A stretch of 64,000 bases of DNA from Pseudovirgaria hyperparasitica. Taxonomy: Eukaryota. The notes beneath the pieces were generated by a model, which was not told the DNA's origin, searched no databases, and worked only from the letters and a program-made list of their open reading frames with translations. Both the position numbers and the translations under genes were made by a program. The DNA is taken from assembly GCA_010093815.1 (NCBI GenBank), contig ML996565.1. One strand, written 5' to 3'. Of the stretch, positions 22,669-64,000 are shown piece by piece; the stretch's first letter is position 1, and each line of letters begins with the position of its first letter.

Positions 22669-23307
22669 CTAACTGGAGCGCGAAGATTGAGGGTGTGAGG
22701 TAGACACATCAATCTTATCATTCATATGTACACAATCATATAGGTATTTGACCGTCTCCGAGTCAATTCCTCCTGTAAGTTGGATGGCATGATCCTCTAG
22801 CGTGGTGTAAGACAAGTCCTTCCCATCCCCATCAATGATCGCAAGGACATGCCCTTACCTAACATCAACAACACCTCGGATCAGAAACTCATTCTCGTGG
22901 CAGAATCTGTTCCCCAAAAATCGGGAGCCATTCGCCGCGTATCCCAAATTCATGCTGATCTCAAAAGCACTGAAGATGTCGCGGACTTTCCGACCGTCGA
23001 CGACAACGATGCGGACATGTTCTTTTCCTTGCTTTAGAAAGTTTTCTCGGATCATTAGAGCGTCGCGCCACTGGCTGGTGAATGTCATGAATGGGGATTT
23101 GGACTCGTTGCCCACTCGGTCTTTGACTTGTACGCGCAGATGCAAGTCTGCGTATACTTCTAGTGGTCGAGTTTTCCAGGCGCCTCGTGCAACAAGTTGA
23201 TCGTTAGGTAAGCCTGATTGATTGCCCTCGGTGGGAACACCGTATATGACGCGGTATAGGAGAGCAGGGCGCTCGGCATTGGGCGAGAGTTCGGTCGTGT
23301 ATGACAT
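22669..23307 (-). pseudogene. ADP-ribosyltransferase-fold (DUF7587-like) gene copy 1, in-frame stop at 22855-22857
   Basis: From ATG 23307: LLYRV…KSPFMTFTSQW…CHENEFLIRG. After TAA the same frame continues GHVLAIIDGDG, matching SDAILGVFHDD of the neighbouring paralog, until TAG at 22669. Confidence 0.55.
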
Positions 23308-23878
23308 GACTTTCGCATTCTGTGACTCTGGCACAGAGATTGCGATCCTCAAGGAGCTGCGTTTGATGAACGAGGTCCTTCAAGTGATCAGTGGGTCTAC
23401 AATGTCTGATATTAAAGGCTTGTCTTTCACTGCTAGAATAGCGCACCCATTGCATTAGTAAATTGTGGTGCCTTGTGCATGAAAGGCGTAAAGAGTGAAG
23501 AGGTCAGACTCTCGACATCTAGGATCTCAAGGACCACTTGACCTCCTTTAATTAACAGGATCGCGATCGGCATAAGGGCAGAAAAACAGGCTTTAACAGT
23601 GAAGCAAAAGTATCCTTTGTTACATTAGGAGATGAGTTGAAACAATGTTTACATGGTGTTCCTCCCACTGTTTCGATCTTCCAGAGGATGCATGAACGAG
23701 GTTCTGCAGTCCCTTATATGCCCATAGGCATGCAATCGATAAGATCGGTCTACGGCCTCCTTCGAGATAATGGTCTGCTGACAGGCGCACCTGGGAGTGG
23801 TGTGACTTCTACAGATGAATACAGATATCTGTTCGCCACATCTTCATAACACGCGACAGTACCGTGCCAATCGAGCCG

Positions 23879-24697
23879 CTACAAGGCGGAAGCAACAGCG
23901 AGAGGACGCACGCTCTGAATTCCAAGCCGAGAGAGCTTAGACGTAAGTTCATCGACTGCAGATTCGCTCCCTTGTGCTGCCTCTGAGCGCTCGGTACACT
24001 CGAGATGCCGCCCGCGAAAGCATCTGTCCAACAACATCAATAGCTCGCCGACATCCAGTAGCTTTGACCACTCTTCAACTTCTGTTTGATCAAGCTCCAT
24101 CGCCGTAAAGAGTGGTAAAAGCATAGGGTAACGGAATTCGCCGGTACAAGTCAGAACTTCGCGAGACACCTCGTCACACGAGAACGGTCTGTCATCATGG
24201 AAGACTCCAAGTATTGCATCACTGCCAGTAGGAACACCGTCAAGGATTAGATATTCGCGTCTGTGATTGATCGGATTGCCGTCCTTCCAAGACCTCCTCC
24301 AATAGTACTTTAGATGCTTGGCATACTTGGAGGCATTGTATACATTGGTCAAGCCTTTCGTTTGGATTGCAATAATTCGTACGTTTTTCTTCCCTTGCCT
24401 TGCGTAGAGTTTCCGGAATCTCTGGGCCTTGGACCAATCGCTTGTGAATGACACAAAAGGAGATCTCCATGGTTTGCCGTAATAATACTTGCGCCATCGA
24501 AGATGAAGATCCACGTCTTTCGTAGTCGGTGTTGTCCTTTCGGAGAACGGCAGGAGGATTCCCATTTCACCTAAAGCAGAAACTGCGCCGAGACTCCGAG
24601 CCGATGCGGCATCTTCATCACGATCATAGACGGTGCGAAATAGGACTTTAGGGACGTTTTGCATAGGCCCTAGAGGGCCTTCAGCAGGTATGTTCAT
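23879..24697 (-). CDS. ADP-ribosyltransferase-fold (DUF7587-like) protein copy 2
   Basis: 272-aa ORF with VLFRTVYDR…RSPFVSFTSDW…NHRREYLILDGVP, an R / S-x-T / E arrangement. Clearly paralogous to the 22.7-23.3 kb gene. Confidence 0.7.
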   Translation of the reverse strand: MNIPAEGPLGPMQNVPKVLFRTVYDRDEDAASARSLGAVSALGEMGILLPFSERTTPTTKDVDLHLRWRKYYYGKPWRSPFVSFTSDWSKAQRFRKLYARQGKKNVRIIAIQTKGLTNVYNASKYAKHLKYYWRRSWKDGNPINHRREYLILDGVPTGSDAILGVFHDDRPFSCDEVSREVLTCTGEFRYPMLLPLFTAMELDQTEVEEWSKLLDVGELLMLLDRCFRGRHLECTERSEAAQGSESAVDELTSKLSRLGIQSVRPLAVASAL

Positions 24698-24839
24698 AAT
24701 GAGAAAGTACAGCCTTCGAAAGGGTCGACGAGAAAATTGGGGGGCGGATTGGGGAGATTTTTAAAGAAGCACGGTCACTGTTTGACACCATTATCGTGCT
24801 TCCGCTCGTTTCTGGCATGATCCCCGAAGCGTTCTCGGT

Positions 24840-48539: not shown

Positions 48540-49560
48540 GAGTAGGACCAAGCAGTCACAAATACTCTCGTATTACTCAATCTACCCCGTGGAGAACTTA
48601 CTATTAGTCCTAAAAGAGACGTAAGAGTACCGTGATGCTATATTGTCAAGGAGATTAGTATAGAATGTCAAATGGTAGGAGCAAAGGCAGCTTATCTACC
48701 TACTCTTGTCTCAGTAATGCTAGGAGTATTGAGTGGTCTCTACAATACTTACTATAGTCACATATAGGGTAAGCTTTCTTTGGAGCTCTAATCTCTTACC
48801 TCTATAAGTGGACATTAGATACGGAGACTCTGTATGTCATGCTCTCCGCTACTCCCCTAAGCCCAGATGGATAGTCACCACATGTGCATGTCAGATCAAT
48901 ATCACGAATCTAAGGAGTCTTCGAGTGGCTATCAATCTAATGGTAGGAGTGGGCAGAGGATCGATTCCATAGTACAAAGACTGGCCATCTTTCATGTTTT
49001 AACTTAGTTTTATCTCCTTATGGTTCACTTAGAGTTACACAAATTCGTTGCATATGCCACCTGTTGCCTATGCCGGACATCTACATCTTCTGAATATTCT
49101 CTATGGCATTCTTCTAACATTAAATATCTAGATTTGTGAATGCGACTTTGTAATAGATGAAACATGATCAAAAAAAATACTCTATAGGAATCTAAAAGTA
49201 AGAGTACTCTAAAATACTAACAGCATAATTATATCCAAGAAGGAAATTCATTTACTAGTTAAAGAGGTGATATCTAGGTTGTGAATGATACATAGAATAC
49301 TAGCAGTAGATACCTTAGTAAATCAATTCGCGTTTCTAATGGATATTCCAAACATGATATGCAATAGATCATATAGATATCGATACATATCAAGTCTAAT
49401 CATTATATGCCCCGTGACAGATATACTTATCAAGAAGATAGCTATAATGCGAAAAATAGTATAAACCTTGAGGATGACTCTATCTATCCTTAACTTAGAT
49501 AATTGCTGTTTACATACCAGTCTTAATAACAGGCTTTGTCATTCATTCCATTTTAGATGA
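48540..49560. other. AT/TpA-rich tract, probable RIP-degraded transposon or repeat relic
   Basis: About 1 kb with dense TA/TAG/TAA, low GC and no ORF of 60 aa or more in the track. Confidence 0.5.
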
Positions 49561-49598
49561 TTGAGGACGCTACACATACATGTAGCGACGTAGCATTC

Positions 49599-51054
49599 CT
49601 AGAATCCTAGATAATCAAGCAACCTCTTCAGTTGCTCCTCATTCTCGCGCCTGCATTTCTTGATCACTTCTTCTGACTGTCGTTGCAAGATGTCAGGATT
49701 ACTGAGACGCCATGGCACGATAGTACGTAGTATAGTGTCAACATCTGCCACCTTTTCGATTCCCTTGATCGTCTTAGGCCTCCTGACGTCCAGCTTCTCT
49801 AGCTCCTCATCTAAGACTCTCGCAGCTTCCCAGTCTACTCCATTCTCAGTAGATTGTGGGAGAGGTGAGGGAAACCCGTGCAGCCTAGCTTCGGTCAGTG
49901 CCGCTTGCTCACCTCCTTCTTCACCACACCAGCCTCGAAATTGGCCGCCGGCACCAAGAAAAGACCGTAGGTACTCGTAAGAAGGGTGCAAGATACTAGA
50001 GAAGTCGTAATCAATCAATCCAGTAATACGAAGGGTCGAAGGGTCGATGAGAAGGTTACTGGGGTCTGTTGGAAAAAAGACTGTTAGTCTGGTAGCATGT
50101 ACGCGAAGTGAAAGAAGGACAAGGAGACAAGGCTTGGAAAGGGGTACTTACTGAAGTCGGCATGTACAATTGACTTGTCCTGCTTTGTCTCCAGTGATTC
50201 GAATTGAGCTGAGAGTCCACGCTCAACAAATGCATCCAACCTGTCTCTGATACCTTCACCGCGCCATCCTTGAACGTGAGGATTTTCGTCCACTTCCCGG
50301 AATTCCTCTTCTATTCGACCCCTAAAAGAAGCCTCATACGATGGCCATGGTCCTTTGCCAACAGTAGGCATGACCGCGCTTACGATTTTGCCATCCTTGT
50401 CAAAGGTCACACCTCCAAATGCGGTAATAGTTTCGGGAAGTTGGTAGTCCTGCAAGCCTTTGAGCAGTCTAGCCATCTGTGCAAACACTTCCCTCTTCTG
50501 CGGAAGTTCCATTGATGGGAATAATTCATCCAGAGAGGTACCAGGCATCAGTTCCTGGATGGTCCAACCAAAGGAAGACTTGGCTGCCGCACTGCCCCAG
50601 GCATATATAGACGGAACCACATGTGGCTGGAAGTCCCTCAGCGCTGAGGCGGCGAGACTGATGATGGCCACTTCGTTCTCAATCCTGGTCTCATGATGCA
50701 TTCCTTCAGCATTGGGATTTGCAAGGCGCACTATGAGATTCTTGGTGCCGTCGGGAATTGATACACAGCCAGGACGGTGAGATACGCCATACTTCCTTCC
50801 CTGGTCTGAGCTGGTCGGTTCACAGAGTGTAATACGATAGACAAAATTATTGTATCTAAACGGAAACTCGGGGTCGTATAGGATGGGAGTGATTTCAGCA
50901 TCTGACTATGATGCGGTGAAAAGTTAGCATCAGGCACCACCCTTGAGCATGCCGATGGAATTAGGCTTACGTTGACGCCTAATTCCTCACGCAGCAGACT
51001 TTGAACGAAGTCGATTCGGGCTTGGTAGCCCATATGATTGTGATTAGTGGACAT
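49599..51054 (-). CDS. Phosphotransferase enzyme family (APH / protein-kinase-like) protein
   Basis: Three exons: …FRYNNFVYR…, IENEVA, VPSIYAWG, WTIQELMPG, IVHADF|TPSNLL, ITGLIDYDFS, EYLRSF. Confidence 0.85.
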
Positions 51055-51407
51055 GATGATAGACTCTAGAAGTGACTCAATAATTTTCTTTCGTAAGCTC
51101 TAAACGTCAGTAATTTTGAACGGTAGTGATGGAATGTACCAGTGGACAACAAAAAGGTTTGTGGGGTTTATATACTTGCACGTAGTGCAGATCTCACAGG
51201 GATCGAAACGCCAGGCACCACCTTCACTTCAGGTAAGGTACACACTTGGCAACATCACGTGATGTGGGATGAAGAGCACAGACTTGCTTGGCGCAGCTGT
51301 GCCTCAATTCAATTGCGATGGGCTTATTTCTTGATTATGCTACGGCTAGCGGTCTAGCTTGCGATTCATCCCACCGTCTCCGCTACCAAGAAAGGTAGCA
51401 ATGTTTC

Positions 51408-51987
51408 CTAAGCATTGCCGACTTTGAAAAAACGTTTGACATCGCGAAGTCTTGAATGAAGCCAGGATCCTGAATCGTGCATGTTCATCAAATGAGCGTG
51501 GTAGCCCACCTCAAGATCGTTGACATCGAGAGATTCTGGTCCATTTGGTAGCTTCAAGTCCATCAGTACCTCTGTCAACCAGATTGAGTCGTATGCATAC
51601 CCAGTGATCACTACCGGTCAGGTCTTTATCGCCATTCGAAGCCAATGGTACAGCAACAGCAAGATCTTGCCCATCGCGAGGACTGTTGTAAGCAGACACC
51701 CACTGGGATCTCGTGGCCGTACTATCGACAGTAAAGCCAGCCTCAGATTTTTGTGCATCACGAGGGATCTTGTAAGCAGACACCCACTGAGATCTCGTGG
51801 CCGTACTGTCGACGGTCGTAGGGTTTACATCTGGATCATGAATAGACCGTTCCTTGATGGCCTGTGCTACGTTAGTTCCATATCATATCATAGAGCGTTA
51901 GAAACTCCCGGCTATGTTGACCGAAGGCGCTATCGCCATGCATGCCGCGGTAGCAGCCAGAGTAGAGGAGAAAAACACTGTCTTCAT
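51408..51987 (-). CDS. Putative dikaritin (fungal RiPP) precursor peptide with two core repeats
   Basis: Signal peptide MKTVFFSSTLAATAACMAIAPS, intron ending CTAAC…CAG at 51862, then AIKERSIHDPDVNPT-TVDSTATRSQWVSAY-KIPRDAQKSEAGF-TVDSTATRSQWVSAY-NSPRDGQ…. The 3' end is 51408 if the GTATGC…AAG intron is spliced, otherwise 51511. Adjacent to two DUF3328 genes. Confidence 0.75.
51688..51816 (-). repeat. Two 45-nt direct repeats (84-nt period) encoding TVDSTATRSQWVSAY
   Basis: Copies at 51772-51816 and 51688-51732 differ at three positions, all synonymous third positions in this frame (ACC/ACT, GAC/GAT, TCT/TCC). Confidence 0.95.
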
Positions 51988-52501
51988 TTCGAAAGGAACT
52001 TTCAGTTGGTCGTTTTGCGCGTTGGGTAGAAGTATTCTATTCTTATATCTACTCTAATCACGCTAATCATAATTACAGACATCGGTTAAATCTCTCAAGG
52101 CTCATCGTATAAGTCAGGGGATCCCGGGAAGCAGAATAGGGAAGGGATTGGATGCTTGCTAGATTTCTCTTGCCAGCCTACAGAATATTCAACATATTTG
52201 TTCGTCTACGGCATAGGCTTATCTTGCCTGACTGTTGCACTAAACCGGGATCGTGCATGTGCAGGAGGACAGCATCACAATGCGGGACTAAGTTGTAGAG
52301 GATCACTAGTGCGACTGAATGTTGCATAGATGTGCAGGGGACAACCACAGCGCCAAAACACTCTGCTGTGCCTCAACCCAGCATTCTAGCATTCCCGAAG
52401 CACTGCCATACTGCTGTCCCAGATATCCATTATTCAGCACATTTCGGAACATCTTTAAGTCAAGCCTCGAACATAGATTGTAATCATCATTCTCTTTCAC
52501 A

Positions 52502-53552
52502 ATGTTTCGACGCCAAGCAGCTGGGTCGAGAGGCCATGATGGACTTGAGTATGTTCGTCTTGAAAATCTCGACTCCAGTAGTATAACCACTACTGGGATA
52601 CATAGGGCACCAGATGCAGAAGAGCAGCCCATTGTTGGACAATACGAACCTATGCGCAGACCAAGAATAATTGTACTAAAGCGCATCGTCTTTGTTCTCT
52701 CCTTGGTCTTAAACTTCGTGAGCGCCTGGAAATGGTTGTTTCCAGGATCCTTATATGATCGAATTCTTACATACTGTGAGGCCAGATCACTCCGAAATGA
52801 GTCCGCGTGCAGAGTACTAACCAGAACGAGAAGCTCCTGCTCTGCCTGTTATTGAGAATGAGAGAGTTGTTTTCTCAAGTGCGTTTGGCATTGAACGATC
52901 ACCATTCCAAGGAGAGCCTTCAGAAGCGAACAATGAATTGTGGACCGGTCTCTACGACTGTAAGAAGTCCATGATTTTGCTCGGTTACCAATGCTAATTG
53001 TTTTGAGTTGGCATTACAAGAATCAGCGCAGAGGAAGCTAGGCCTATGGACAACAAGACTCTCCCCTTGCCCGATAACAAGGGCGGCTACGTAGTTCAAT
53101 TATCAGTGTTCCATCAGCTTCATTGTTTGGTGAGTCTGAACTGCGTGAAATGAATATGAAAATCCGTGCTGATCGAATTGTCTGACAGAACATGATCAGA
53201 AAGGGTATATATAACGGTGTCGATATGTCGAATGTGGATGAATTGATGGGTATCGAGCATATTGATCATTGTATTGATATGCTCCGTCAAAGCATAATGG
53301 TATGTCAGTGCAACGCATGTGACTCATTCTGACGAGCTTCGATAGTGCCATAGTGACATAACTCCTACTACGTTTGCACGGCAATCGCTCAAGGACAGCA
53401 TGAAAGTCGTGGCAGAAGTTGTCCATACTTGTAGGAAGTTCTCTAATATTCAACAGTGGGCCTGGAATAGACGGATCAAAAGCGCCATTGATAAGGAGAC
53501 GGTTGTTACTAATGATCCCTTGGGATGGGGAACGTACACATATTCACCATAG
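52502..53552 (+). CDS. UstYa-family (DUF3328) oxidase 1
   Basis: Five exons: TM helix, YSPA, SPFQGEPSEANNELW, VFHQLHCL|NMIRK, EHIDHCIDMLRQSIM|CHSDITP, HTCRKFSNIQQWA. Both HxxHC motifs are intact. Confidence 0.93.
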
Positions 53553-53774
53553 GCTTATTCAGTTGTGCATAGATATTGCGAATCTGGCAGAAGGGTTGAT
53601 AGAGTAGTCATACAGTATCTAGTTTCCAGACCACTCCCTCTACAGGGCTGGTAGAGATCTAATTGATTGGGACGATACCACAATGTGGGGACAGTGCGGC
53701 TGTACCGAATTGTCGGTTTTACGAAAAAGGCCAATATGTATTGGTAGGAGATCAAACGAAGCGTCCGAATAGAC

Positions 53775-54666
53775 TCAATTGACATCATTTTCTGCATAAA
53801 TTCCTAGCTCAGAGTCATGCTTGTTGACCCATTCTGTAATCGCAGCGAAGTCTCGACACATGTGGGTTGTAGAGAAACGGGGAACAGGTTTCAGTTTACC
53901 AACGTCAGTGTAAAAGACGAGACCTATATCTCCGTTGCACATTAGGACCTGACGAAGGAGATCTATACAGTGATCTGTTTACCCTTAGATAATATACATT
54001 CCTGAACAGTACTAGAACTTACCAACGTGCTCCCAAACCATATCCGGGGGATCCTGGAATGTGTCGACATGTTGATAGTTCTGCCGCCAGATGAATTTAC
54101 GAGTTATATCTAGACAATGCAGCTGGTGATAAACTTCGACTGTAGCATAATAATGACCGTTGACGCCTTTTGAAGGCTTTGAAGTTGGATCAAACGACTG
54201 CAACGTCTCATTGTTAACTAGAAGCATAGGCTCTGCTGAGAGTCAGAATGAAAGTATGTATACTGGTGTGGCCGTAGAGAATTCGAAGACAATACATACG
54301 ATCGACCAACCTCTTCCACGCGTCGTCAAGTTGTGGTCTAGGAGGACCCTTGTAAACTGATGGTGCTCCCAAATCAGCGTCAAACCTCTTAGGACTGTAT
54401 TGTGCTAAGTCAATCAGAGGGTCTCCATTGCGTTAGTACCAGAAGCGGAGTTATAAAAAAGGATTTACATTACAATGACTCTTCAAGACTCGTTGTTGTC
54501 GGCTATCTGTTGGAAGCAAAGTCGTCTTGTTACATGAATTTAGTCGTTGGAAACTCCAGATATTGAGGATAACGGTGAAAAAGAAAACAACAATGTTCAG
54601 ACTGGTCAAGATTCGGGCCCAGCAGGCTCGAAATGAAGTCGTCTCGTGATTGTAAAAGACCTCCAT
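53775..54666 (-). CDS. UstYa-family (DUF3328) oxidase 2
   Basis: Four exons: TM helix, SVYKGPPRPQLDDAW, EVYHQLHCLDITRK, EHV|DHCIDLLRQVLMCNGD, HMCRDFAAITEWV, stop at 53775. The start codon is uncertain. Confidence 0.9.
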
Positions 54667-55199
54667 CGCGAGAAGCTTCACAGTCAGTAGACACCTTCAA
54701 TAAGGGAGCCAGAGGCTCCAGAAACCGATTATCATGCTCTTCCTTTTCGCTTCACCCTGTCATACGAAGGCTCTAGTGCAATTACTGGGCAGTCGCGGCA
54801 TTTCATAGCCAACGTCATCTTGCTGGCTCCAGAAAATCCCTCACCATGTAATCTCAAAACGTATAACCACTGAGGTGGCCTGGCTTGACCTGTTTAAAAG
54901 GAGGATGCATGTAAGGAACTTACCCATGATAGTGCATGCATACCGTGTGTTTGGGTTTCGCCTAGCCCCAACTTGGGTGCCGGGGATGAGCTGTGTGGCT
55001 GGCTGTGGGCGGGCTGTTGCTTCACAGATGCCGATAGTTCACCGCAAATGGATTGACATTCGAAGAAAGTGAGGACATTCGGCATATCCGAAGATAAAGG
55101 ATTTTGACACCCCAGTACTTTATCCATCCAGCAGAACATACTTATGTCTGCGTTTCGGGATATTAGATAGGCCTGGTCTGTGCGATATTCGGAGAGAAG

Positions 55200-55580
55200 T
55201 CCTTACCTTAGTGTAGCTTTTAGCTCATCCATAGAAGCACCCTCATGAGTCATTTCTCGGGAGCTTATTATATAGAGAGTAGAGATAGTAGCTTACGATT
55301 TATATTTTTGCTTTCATATCGAACATACTCCCTAATAAATAAGATAGCTAGTTGCTATTAAGTTTTTCTTCTCGATATCTCTATCTATTTTGCCTGACAT
55401 CTATAATACTATCTAGCGTTCTATACTTCTATTCTATTATTATAGTTCGTCAAGGTATAGTGTGCATTACGGGGACTATTTATTATGAAAATGTTATTAT
55501 TATACTAAGCCGCTATCTCTAATTCTATATAAGCTCCCGAGACTACAATTTCATGTGGAAAATGCGGGGGCGTCATATTA
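55200..55580. other. AT/TpA-rich tract, probable RIP-degraded relic
   Basis: Sequences such as ctataatactatctagcgttctatacttctattctattattatag; no ORF. Confidence 0.5.
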
Positions 55581-56509
55581 TACTCTTTGAGGAAGCTCCA
55601 TATAGAGTTCCATGGTCACGTGTACACAGTATAAACATGAAATCGTAGTAGCACGATGTGTTATGGATCCAAGGTTACAATGTGTCTCTGAACCTTCACA
55701 CCCAATCAATGCATAGCCGCCTGCAACGCACGCACTTGCTTTGGGCTTAAAATAGGCAGCAATCACTACTTGAGTGACAGCACTATGTTTCAAAAAAGGA
55801 CTTTGCTTGTTCTATTACCAATTCTGATACGAACTACGAGTCAACGTCACTTTCATATTATATTAATTTGTAGATAGCGTACCTAGTGGCAAAGGCGGAG
55901 AATCGCCCCAAGGCAAGAGTACGTTTCTAGTAGACCGCACACAGTATCCCTCAAAGACAGACCAGCGCTCCCTGCTCTTCACGTTGATCGAACAAAAGCA
56001 CCTCCAGCCATTCCAGGAAAGTTATTTCATCATTCGAGCTCGCGACGATGAGTCGGAGAGACCAGCTACGTCTAAGTATGAAGAACTTGGTCTCTTTGTT
56101 GTCCCTGGTCTGGTGAGAGGTGTCCCTCCAGGAGTTCTCTAGAGTGGAGATCCAAAGACTGAAGGACAGAGCGGTGGCTCAGACTCTGTCACAGGTGGGG
56201 GAGATGCGGCAGTGATAGCTGACGTCACATCCTAAATTAGACTGTGTTATTCCAAATGAGCAGGTTAGTTCGTGCTGATCAGAAAGCCAGCACGTTACGA
56301 CAATGTACTTTTCACGAGCGTCGTCTCAGTGTGCCGGCGATGCGTCACTTTGAAGGAACCTTAGATAGGCCCGGTTGGTGCTTCAAACCCTGTCAGAAGC
56401 ACGCAGTCATTCTCCAACAATGTCTCGTAGATGACACGGGCAACAGTGAAGTGGTTCAGTTGCGGTGACTCGAACTCTTGCTGCCCAAATAGCCATGCTT
56501 CTGACGTCT

Positions 56510-57029
56510 TCATAAACCACCTTGGAACCCGAATGAAGATAGTATGAGGACCAAAGTGCAGACAAGTGCCCAAGCGAACGGAATCCAGGTTGACACTCTA
56601 TAGTAACCCGCTTGATATACGGTTCCAATTCTGTCATGGGTGAGTATCACATATCTTGTATCATGAAAGCACATACAAGCCTCCCGTAACGCTGCCTGCA
56701 ATTAATGCCTCCACTCCACCGATCACAGCATATATTATTGGCACCGTCCATATCACCTTATAATTCCGTTTTTGGATCGCAATCGCCCAGAAGCAGACAG
56801 CGGCGTGTACAGCAGCGTAGAAGATGAGTGTCCAGAGAAGCGTGAACCTCCAGACGTCTCCAATATTGTATAAGAAATTTGCCTGGGGGCCGGCCACAGG
56901 AATTGGCCAGTACAGAGATGGAAATGATGGAGTTGTGTAGCCTAGGGGTGCGGTGCGGATGTTTCGCTGCAAGAAACTGCAGCTCGTCAGTGACTTGGAC
57001 AGGATCGTAAAATCAGTCGCATACCTCAT
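56510..57029 (-). CDS. Small integral membrane protein, TMEM170-like
   Basis: Three exons: MS|FLQRNIRTAPLGYTTPSFPSLYWP…DVWRFTLLWTLIFY…GSVTGGL|IGTVYQAGYYRVSTWIPFAWA…SFGFQGGL*. Confidence 0.8.
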
Positions 57030-57642
57030 TGGGCCCTACAAGTTGTGGTCGCGCGGATGCATATTCATCGGATCATGAAGCTGCGACGATAAAAGTGGAT
57101 GTATGGCGCAACTAGAATGAATGACTATGCTAGTTGCTTGCCTTGCTGCCTTAGACAGCCTGTCGGCGTATCGCAACAAGTAAACCTGACACCTATGGTC
57201 ACTACACTATGAGAGACCGGTCTTCCTTCTACACGATCTTTTGGCCTTCGATACTGGATGATCAAAGAGTACCACAACAATAGTACAATGTGTGTTTGCG
57301 ACGATAGCTCCCTTGGCGTTCAGACCACCGGTTAAACCATCACCTACGCCACCGGCCCCTTTCAAACAGCCGTGTCGCATTCACTTTCGTCAACGCGTCT
57401 GACTTGTCTTTCCCAACCTCCTTCTCCACAGATCTCTTTGCACTTTTCAAAATATCCACGCTTTTCCATGTCCAATCCGCGAAAAGCTCGTACATTCGTA
57501 CGGTAGCAAGGATCTTCCGATCGCGTTGTCCTCTACGACAAGCCTCCATTTATCCCTTCGAATTGCGCGCGCATATTGTTTACGCCTGTTCAGCCGCTGA
57601 AATATCGTCTGGAAGACACGCTGGTCAACTGATACAGTCATC

Positions 57643-63540: not shown

Positions 63541-64000
63541 TCAGATCCCACTATCATCCTGGAACGGATTCGGCGGAATCGCACACCTCTTCTCGTTTTT
63601 CTTGAACCACGCGTCCCAGTCTTTGCACACCTGTCTGTGCTGCGCCATCTGCGCAACCATCTCCGGGTCCTTGGAGGACAGCAAGGTTTTCAAGTCTTCC
63701 TTGCGCTCGATGATCTGCATGGCCAGACCGCTGCTTGCGTGCCAGGCAATATGGCAATGCTGTAAAGAAACACGGGTGCGAGTTAGCAAAGAATGATATT
63801 TTCCCTGGGGGTTAGTAATCTTTGTAGCGGAAGGAGTACGTACCACAATCCATACGCCCGGGTTGTCGGCTTTGAACGCCATCACGAGGTAGCCACCGCT
63901 TGGGAGTAGGGCCACATCTCGGCGAGGCGGATTGTCCCATTTGAGATTCACCTTGCCGAGCTCGAGGTCCGTCCAGTCCGTTCCTTGGGCAAGCAATGCA
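63541..64000 (-). CDS. Multicopper oxidase / laccase, C-terminal part (5'-partial)
   Basis: NPPRRDVALLP…AFKADNPGVWIV, intron, HCHIAWHASSGLAMQ copper-site motif and C-terminal DSGI typical of ascomycete laccases. Confidence 0.92.
   Translation of the reverse strand, partial: ALLAQGTDWTDLELGKVNLKWDNPPRRDVALLPSGGYLVMAFKADNPGVWIVVRTPSATKITNPQGKYHSLLTRTRVSLQHCHIAWHASSGLAMQIIERKEDLKTLLSSKDPEMVAQMAQHRQVCKDWDAWFKKNEKRCAIPPNPFQDDSGI

Follow-up and report, generated by a model that had tools for sequence, protein, structure and literature searches.

A candidate dikaritin-like peptide cassette built on a new family of repeat precursors in Pseudovirgaria hyperparasitica

A stretch of 64,000 nucleotides from contig ML996565.1 of the fungus Pseudovirgaria hyperparasitica (GenBank assembly GCA_010093815.1), here called the window, was analysed. 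The species is placed in the Acrospermales of the Dothideomycetes and is a parasite of rust fungi. A three-gene locus at positions 51408-54666 comprises a pair of PF11807 (UstYa/DUF3328) genes, named UstYa-1 and UstYa-2, and a gene for a small repeat protein, named the precursor for its proposed role. A first-pass annotation of the sequence had picked out a small open reading frame (ORF) with two identical 15-residue repeats, and this was found where it had been placed, on the minus strand. The arrangement described in that annotation was also recovered. The repeat gene is divergent from UstYa-1, with 514 nt between the start codons against an estimate of about 0.5 kb, and UstYa-2 (54666-53775) is convergent on UstYa-1 with 222 nt between the stop codons. 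The positions of the features are given in Table 1.

The RNA evidence consisted of the spliced contigs of two runs of one sample, X1 and X2, placed on positions 49000-57500. All nine coding introns and one 5'-leader intron were spliced out in the contigs, on both strands. All three genes are transcribed and spliced. The first-pass annotation had made its reading depend on transcription of the precursor, and both precursor introns were removed in the contigs of X1 and X2. When spliced at the RNA joints the reading frames were open, giving products of 160 amino acids for the precursor, 279 for UstYa-1 and 241 for UstYa-2, the last identical to the deposited protein P0002. The first precursor intron was non-canonical (GG..AG) in both runs and the second was GT..AG. 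The deposited precursor model P0001 (142 amino acids) does not contain the 49-nt second intron and ends at a different stop codon, so that its last ~29 residues (window 51408-51617) are wrong. The lower limit of the first-pass locus, position 51408, coincides with the actual stop at which the RNA-supported last exon ends. The first exon of the UstYa-1 leader lies at most ~40 nt from the precursor start codon or overlaps it, and one contig carries minus-strand and plus-strand splices just 116 nt apart. The position of the leader intron indicates that the UstYa-1 transcript begins near, or overlaps, the 5' end of the precursor. The two genes seem to form a head-to-head pair of transcription units whose 5' ends overlap.

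Table 1. Features of the three-gene locus and its immediate neighbours (window coordinates).
Feature	Position	Strand	Details	Basis
Precursor gene, coding part	51408..51987	minus	exons 51909-51987, 51601-51860, 51408-51551; ATG 51987, stop 51408-51410; 160 aa	contig joints, open translation
Precursor introns	~51862-51909 and ~51552-51600	minus	48 nt and 49 nt	contig joints
Signal-peptide-like N-terminus	51928..51987	minus	~20 residues: MK, hydrophobic stretch, AIA end	read from sequence
Repeat unit 1	51772..51816	minus	15 aa, TVDSTATRSQWVSAY	
Repeat unit 2	51688..51732	minus	identical 15 aa, TVDSTATRSQWVSAY; 3 synonymous changes	
Last exon, conserved C-terminal domain	51408..51551	minus	LPxGPxxLD...GYHAHL...KRxF, then stop	
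Shared head-to-head region	51988..52501	both	514 nt; one contig crosses entire region	
UstYa-1 5'-leader intron	52026-52078	plus	GT..AG	joint 52024 to 52078 in both runs
UstYa-1 gene	52502..53552	plus	ATG 52502; 279 aa	contig joints, open translation, PF11807
UstYa-1 coding exons	52502-52775, 52834-52959, 53008-53128, 53188-53298, 53345-53552	plus		
UstYa-1 introns	~52776-52833, ~52960-53007, ~53130-53188, ~53300-53345	plus	all GT..AG	contig joints
UstYa-1 membrane helix	~52667-52735	plus		
UstYa-1 HxxHC motifs	53112-53126 and 53258-53272	plus		
UstYa-2 gene	53775..54666	minus	241 aa	three joints, PF11807
UstYa-2 exons	54474-54666, 54300-54422, 54023-54232, 53775-53974	minus		
UstYa-2 introns	53975-54022, 54233-54299, 54423-54473	minus		contig joints
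UstYa-2 membrane helix	~54544-54612	minus		
UstYa-2 HxxHC motifs	54114-54128 and 53967-54029	minus	second motif across last intron	
Single spliced contig over all three genes	51352..55173		X1 to 54953, X2 to 55173	
APH-type phosphotransferase gene	49602-51099	minus	immediate neighbour of precursor gene	
TMEM170-like gene	around 56664-57035		immediate neighbour on other side of cassette	

The hydropathy maximum of the precursor (19-residue span) was at residues 10-28, and no Pfam match was found for the gene (51408-51987). In the DNA the repeats form two 66-nt direct copies which are 86% identical and lie 84 nt apart. A direct-repeat search detected the pair; Tandem Repeats Finder reported no repeat on positions 51400-52000. 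Between the two window units the repeat cores (first 15 codons) had three synonymous and no non-synonymous differences, and the linkers (next 13 codons) had one synonymous and nine non-synonymous differences (Fisher p = 0.014 for the contrast). Judged from these codons, the Trp/Val/Tyr unit is under constraint while the linkers drift. The repeat pair is considered more than chance because the differences in the 15-residue core are all synonymous and because the gene trio recurs elsewhere. The sole dibasic site of the 160-residue protein is a KR at residues 152-153, in the C-terminal tail.

Assignment of the two larger genes to DUF3328 in the first-pass annotation was borne out by PF11807, which matched four of the five exons of UstYa-1 and three of the four exons of UstYa-2 (E 1.6e-4 to 1.4e-17). 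Full-length UstYa-2 (P0002) matched at E 7.8e-47. Each enzyme has a single hydrophobic helix near its N-terminus and the two HxxHC motifs that had been reported for it, HQLHC and HIDHC in UstYa-1 and HQLHC and HVDHC in UstYa-2. The two enzymes are distant paralogues with 29.5% identity. A PDB sequence search with UstYa-2 gave no matches at E <= 1. The 2025 CctR study (PMC12435403) describes DUF3328 proteins as dioxygen-dependent binuclear-copper enzymes in which two HxxHC motifs form the metal site, and as anchored through one helix in membranes of the Golgi, endosome or vacuole, the catalytic domain lying in the lumen. It implicates the family in macrocyclisation, hydroxylation, halogenation and isomerisation. 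As the catalytic domain is lumenal the substrate must use the secretory route, which is consistent with a signal-peptide protein.

Relatives of UstYa-2 were sought by scoring 24 candidates. UstYa-2 orthologues from two fungal classes shared 61-76% identity with the Nemania abortiva protein, the window protein sharing 67%. The nearest relatives of UstYa-2 had 70-83% identity over the last exon and came from taxa that also contain the precursor family. A tree of ten UstYa-2 orthologues was rooted with UstYa-1. Six of its eight inner branches were open, so the tree gives no argument for vertical descent or for transfer between classes. The 1072-residue protein P0014 of Cudoniella acicularis has a UstYa-2-like domain joined to protein kinase domains and may be a merged gene model.

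A HMMER scan of 1.84 billion representatives with P0001 gave 307 matches at E <= 0.001, of which the best 150 were inspected. Six of these 150 were short proteins of fungal type (P0016, P0017, P0043, P0071, P0099 and P0112). A further 143 were long, bacterial-type proteins with several stretches matched, mostly to residues 73-112 of P0001, and PF06739 was present in all four of the long matches checked. On this evidence the small protein could be a fragment or relative of the bacterial SBBP beta-propeller repeat proteins, with its repeats acting as structural blades. This is extremely improbable. P0001 matched 143 of the 143 long proteins, while none of these was matched by the family profile or by 15 other members, and PF06739 was found at E <= 1 in none of five family members. 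The likeness lies in a linker specific to this species, and the many repeats of the targets push up the summed score. A propeller identity was rejected on the absence of any match from the other members and the profile, and since the window protein alone shows the resemblance it is taken as a local chance likeness. By hand alignment the second repeat and linker at residues 73-112 of P0001 (~51619-51738) are ~40% identical to one SBBP blade over 41 amino acids.

A profile built from the six short proteins gave 13 matches at E <= 0.01, P0166-P0172 among them, and further family names came from cluster look-ups. A word-based search with the precursor matched the precursor alone. Family members were found in the Xylariales (Nemania abortiva, N. 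serpens, N. diffusa/Hypoxylon argillaceum, two strains of Xylaria arbuscula, and Anthostomella pinea) and in the Sordariales (Bombardia bombarda, three Podospora species and Triangularia setosa). Beyond the window species the Dothideomycetes contributed Elsinoe ampelina. Further members came from Logan and ENA records. A protein labelled Lasiodiplodia mahajangana shares a 90% cluster with the Nemania abortiva precursor, and N. diffusa and H. argillaceum have an identical precursor and a UstYa-2 that is almost the same. Any one of three causes, mislabelled strains, contamination or recent transfer, would account for these observations (P0177, P0167/P0003/P0173).

The Podospora anserina homologue is listed in a 2022 RNA-seq re-annotation as a new three-exon transcript of chromosome 1, with no function given in section 10 and Table 3 of that paper (PMC9801653). 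Table 3 tags it as 'Signal peptide, transmembrane domain', the signal peptide being taken from InterPro. This table was the sole open-literature match to the family motif strings. No description of the family as a precursor of a peptide made on the ribosome and modified after translation (RiPP) was found in the open PMC/bioRxiv literature; subscription papers and supplementary tables, such as the lists of Kex2-processed repeat proteins (KEPs) of PMC7329392, could hold one. The top ESM Atlas score, 0.84, fell short of a meaningful level, and a cluster of alpha-factor-type precursors at 0.76 is a lead only.

Family members share a plan of a signal-like N-terminus, one to four copies of a 16-residue unit, linkers that vary in length and sequence, a DHW motif and a C-terminal domain. 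The unit has the consensus PTVDxTSTRxQWVSSY. Conservation over 53 units in 18 proteins was 53/53 for V13, 51/53 for Y16 and V3, 50/53 for R9, 49/53 for W12 and 47/53 for T2, counts that lean to the consensus as units were chosen by D at position 4 and at least six consensus matches. The core proposed in the first-pass annotation, within SQWVSAY, fits the family in its Val, Tyr and Trp. Near the core a single basic residue is conserved, an Arg located three residues ahead of the Trp. The C-terminal domain of ~47 residues contains GYHAHL and KR and was conserved wherever the gene model was complete. The last exon of the window gene matches the C-terminus of P0166 from Nemania abortiva at 60% identity and also aligns with those of P0167, P0169, P0170 and P0043. 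This RNA-supported exon is the version conserved in relatives. C-termini of the P0001 type reflect a missed intron. The second intron was also missed in P0016, P0165, P0171 and P0112, which, like P0001, have unrelated sequence after DHW.

This architecture would also suit a UstYa substrate that is secreted whole or as a large fragment, with cross-links or hydroxylations in each repeat, and is never cut to small peptides. The window protein has no dibasic processing sites around its repeats, repeat numbers in the family are low (1-4), and a C-terminal domain kept across classes would be unusual for a disposable precursor. An uncut protein is nevertheless unlikely, as varying copy number and conserved units alternating with free linkers form the pattern of a multi-core precursor. 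Some homologues do have dibasic pairs near their units, which are not conserved: RR before QWV in Xylaria arbuscula, RK in Bombardia and KK in the Podospora-type protein. AlphaFold2 predicted no confident fold for the Nemania abortiva precursor (mean pLDDT 33.5), although from an alignment of just seven sequences.

The first-pass annotation had also made its reading depend on linkage of precursor homologues to DUF3328 genes elsewhere. Such linkage was found in all seven genomes in which both partners were named, the window species included, with the precursor at most two gene positions from the UstYa-2 orthologue; a metagenome locus described below was the one exception. Gene order was taken from accession order, with the window species and two genomes whose locus tags are positional as calibration. 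In Pseudovirgaria hyperparasitica one gene, UstYa-1, lies between the precursor (KAF2763254) and UstYa-2 (KAF2763256). Precursor and UstYa-2 orthologue were spaced as n and n+2 in Bombardia bombarda (KAK0637154 and KAK0637156), Nemania abortiva (KAI1121062 and KAI1121060, on one 58.8-kb contig), Nemania diffusa (KAI1156486 and KAI1156484) and Hypoxylon argillaceum (KAI0878809 and KAI0878811). They were on one 15-kb contig in Xylaria arbuscula (g5405 and g5403) and had adjacent tags in Anthostomella pinea (Uu.00g133480 and Uu.00g133490). An ENA pair, precursor P0171 and UstYa protein P0011, both report a 5122-nt contig and stand outside the count of seven. Elsinoe, Nemania serpens and the Podospora group, which have no UstYa partner on record, are likewise outside the count, and the search of 24 UstYa candidates says nothing either way about them.

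A metagenome scan with a five-row family alignment gave one locus, L001, from a 67-kb contig. It holds the closest relative of the window precursor (65-68% amino acid identity), adjoined as in the window by an APH-type gene (79-84%). The similarity of L001 to the window ends 18 nt inside the precursor coding sequence. The L001 copy has one unit, AVDETAMRSEWVSSY, and TTC at the position of the window start codon, features which suggest that it may be a decaying remnant. It has a canonical GTAAGT at the donor of the first intron and a GC donor at the second. A fragment of a non-ribosomal peptide synthetase (NRPS) with AMP-binding, PP-binding and Condensation domains was present at L001 16325-20317, 6 kb from the precursor homologue.

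The three genes are probably a dikaritin-like (ustiloxin-type) RiPP cassette built on a new precursor family. This reading was reached because a constrained Trp/Val/Tyr repeat with drifting linkers and variable copy number is linked in two classes to lumenal copper oxidases. The 160-residue precursor would enter the secretory pathway via its N-terminal signal peptide and there meet the lumenal domains of the two membrane-anchored UstYa/DUF3328 enzymes. The enzyme pair would oxidatively modify every copy of the conserved unit, the likeliest reaction being a cross-link of the near-invariant Tyr with the Trp or Val of W-V-x-x-Y, and proteases would then free the peptide. The upstream half of the unit (PTVDxTSTR), the conserved C-terminal domain, or both may act as recognition elements. 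Secretion of the precursor, its relationship to the enzymes as substrate, the type of modification and the proteolytic release are all putative. The dikaritin-like precursor of the first-pass annotation gained from the family linkage and the transcription; it departs from the textbook form in having just two repeats, which no dibasic Kex2 site separates, and a C-terminal domain which that annotation had overlooked. A more specific proposal is a Kex2-independent UstYa branch, in which the unit's own upstream stretch presents the W-V-x-x-Y core, a His-bearing C-terminal 'follower' docks the precursor to a heteromeric UstYa pair, and the product carries a Trp-involving cross-link new to fungal RiPPs. 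This is possible but rather doubtful.

A number of points weigh against a dikaritin-like cassette. There is no dibasic (Kex2) site between or beside the two repeats of the window precursor, and the literature describes processing by Kex2 for the dikaritin precursors that are known (PMC7329392; PMC10840396). DUF3328 genes are also reported in non-ribosomal peptide and polyketide clusters (PMC12048977). That accession order equals gene order is an assumption, and the middle gene in the other genomes was inferred to be a UstYa-1 orthologue from spacing only. The RNA evidence is the contigs of one sample, which speak to the existence of spliced RNA and give no levels, strand or co-regulation. Product, secretion and enzyme activity are predictions here. 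L001 is a plain case of a precursor without linked enzymes, as neither tblastn searches with UstYa-1 and UstYa-2 nor a Pfam scan of 19 ORFs found a UstYa gene within +/-10 kb of its precursor.

The retention of the small gene in L001 without nearby UstYa genes would also be expected if the small protein were not the substrate. It could then be a UstYa helper, for example in copper handling or docking via its His-rich C-terminal DHW...GYHAHL, or an unrelated secreted protein kept by a shared bidirectional promoter, with the substrate of the enzymes encoded elsewhere. The conserved His residues of the C-terminal domain agree with such a role, as does the statement that DUF3328 enzymes are not restricted to RiPP pathways (PMC12048977). 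Linkage in all seven named genomes of two classes speaks against it, and a constrained, repeated Trp/Tyr unit has no obvious helper role. No gene of the NRPS or polyketide synthase (PKS) type was present among the 42 large ORFs scanned for domains across the 64-kb window. A non-substrate role is judged distinctly improbable.

The same 42 ORFs contained no tyrosinase, methyltransferase, peptidase or transporter domains. At a distance of more than 35 kb from the cassette are a Zn2Cys6 factor and a P450. Contig depth over the neighbouring APH-type gene (49472-51128, minus) was 994 and 2628, compared to 47 and 108 over the cassette. DUF7587 matches were present in two adjacent minus-strand ORFs, at 23882-24760 (E 1.8e-9) and, weakly, at 22858-23379 (E 3e-4, 21.3 bits against a Pfam cutoff of 27). 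A multicopper oxidase fragment lies at the window end, 63544-63999.

Known fungal ribosomal peptides are few, and the search for those of the UstYa class has depended on precursors with many-fold repeats and Kex2 sites between them. This conserved family breaks that rule. Surveys based on protein sequences would have missed the family, given the wrong deposited C-terminus, the same read-through in several relatives and a Podospora anserina gene that was unannotated until 2022. The presence of a member in P. anserina, a model open to genetic work, allows direct tests of the product and of what the two divergent UstYa enzymes do. Ustiloxins and phomopsins inhibit tubulin (PMC7329392). With characterised dikaritins inhibiting tubulin and a host that parasitises rusts, a bioactive product from the window cassette is plausible.

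By sequence the cassette is different from described dikaritins in three respects, namely the repeats free of Kex2 sites in the window protein, the conserved 9-residue stretch before the core, and the C-terminal domain. It shares with them adjoining UstYa genes with HxxHC...HxxHC, a tandem repeated motif and a Tyr in the core. Kex2 sites between the repeats and, among the 42 large ORFs scanned, the original accessory genes are absent.

The asperipin-2a system of Aspergillus flavus has the precursor AprA and a single DUF3328 oxidase, AprY. The window cassette resembles it in having a putatively secreted repeat precursor beside UstYa-type oxidases, no tyrosinase or methyltransferase, and an aromatic-rich core with Tyr. 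In AprA the repeats are short and numerous with Kex2 sites between them, whereas the window protein has two repeats (1-4 in the family) and no dibasic separators. The window cassette further differs in the stretch ahead of each core, the C-terminal domain and the presence of two distant UstYa paralogues rather than one. The asperipin-2a cluster is described as a minimal architecture with few accessory genes (PMC12048977).

The founding dikaritin systems, ustiloxin (UstA/UstYa/UstYb) and phomopsin (PhomA/PhomY), share with the window cassette a signal peptide, putative here, a repeated Tyr core and at least two homologous DUF3328 proteins (PMC7329392). In these systems the DUF3328 proteins are reported to be needed for cyclisation, and the Tyr is ether-linked to a side chain two residues away (PMC7329392). 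Their cores are Y-x-I-x tetrapeptides flanked by KR, in contrast to the window core with its Trp four residues before the Tyr. Their clusters add a tyrosinase, methyltransferase, peptidases and a transporter, none of which was found among the window ORFs scanned. Later definitions of dikaritins treat accessory genes as dispensable (PMC12048977).

KEPs are defined by Umemura (2020, PMC7329392) as having at least three tandem repeats of at least 8 amino acids between KR/KK/RK/RR sites together with a signal peptide, and 22% of the KEPs in that survey were near DUF3328 genes. The window protein is similar in being a secreted-type fungal protein with tandem repeats. It differs in having two repeats and no dibasic separators and falls outside the definition, so the published KEP miner would not report it.

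In the plant burpitides, copper cyclases of the BURP-domain type cross-link Tyr/Trp cores in repeat precursors (PMC12186524; comparison in PMC12435403). Copper-dependent cross-linking of side chains, predicted here, recognition sequences next to the cores, putative here, and a similar four-histidine arrangement are common to both systems. The enzyme fold and the kingdom are different and no BURP domain is present here, making the resemblance one of possible mechanism and not of membership.

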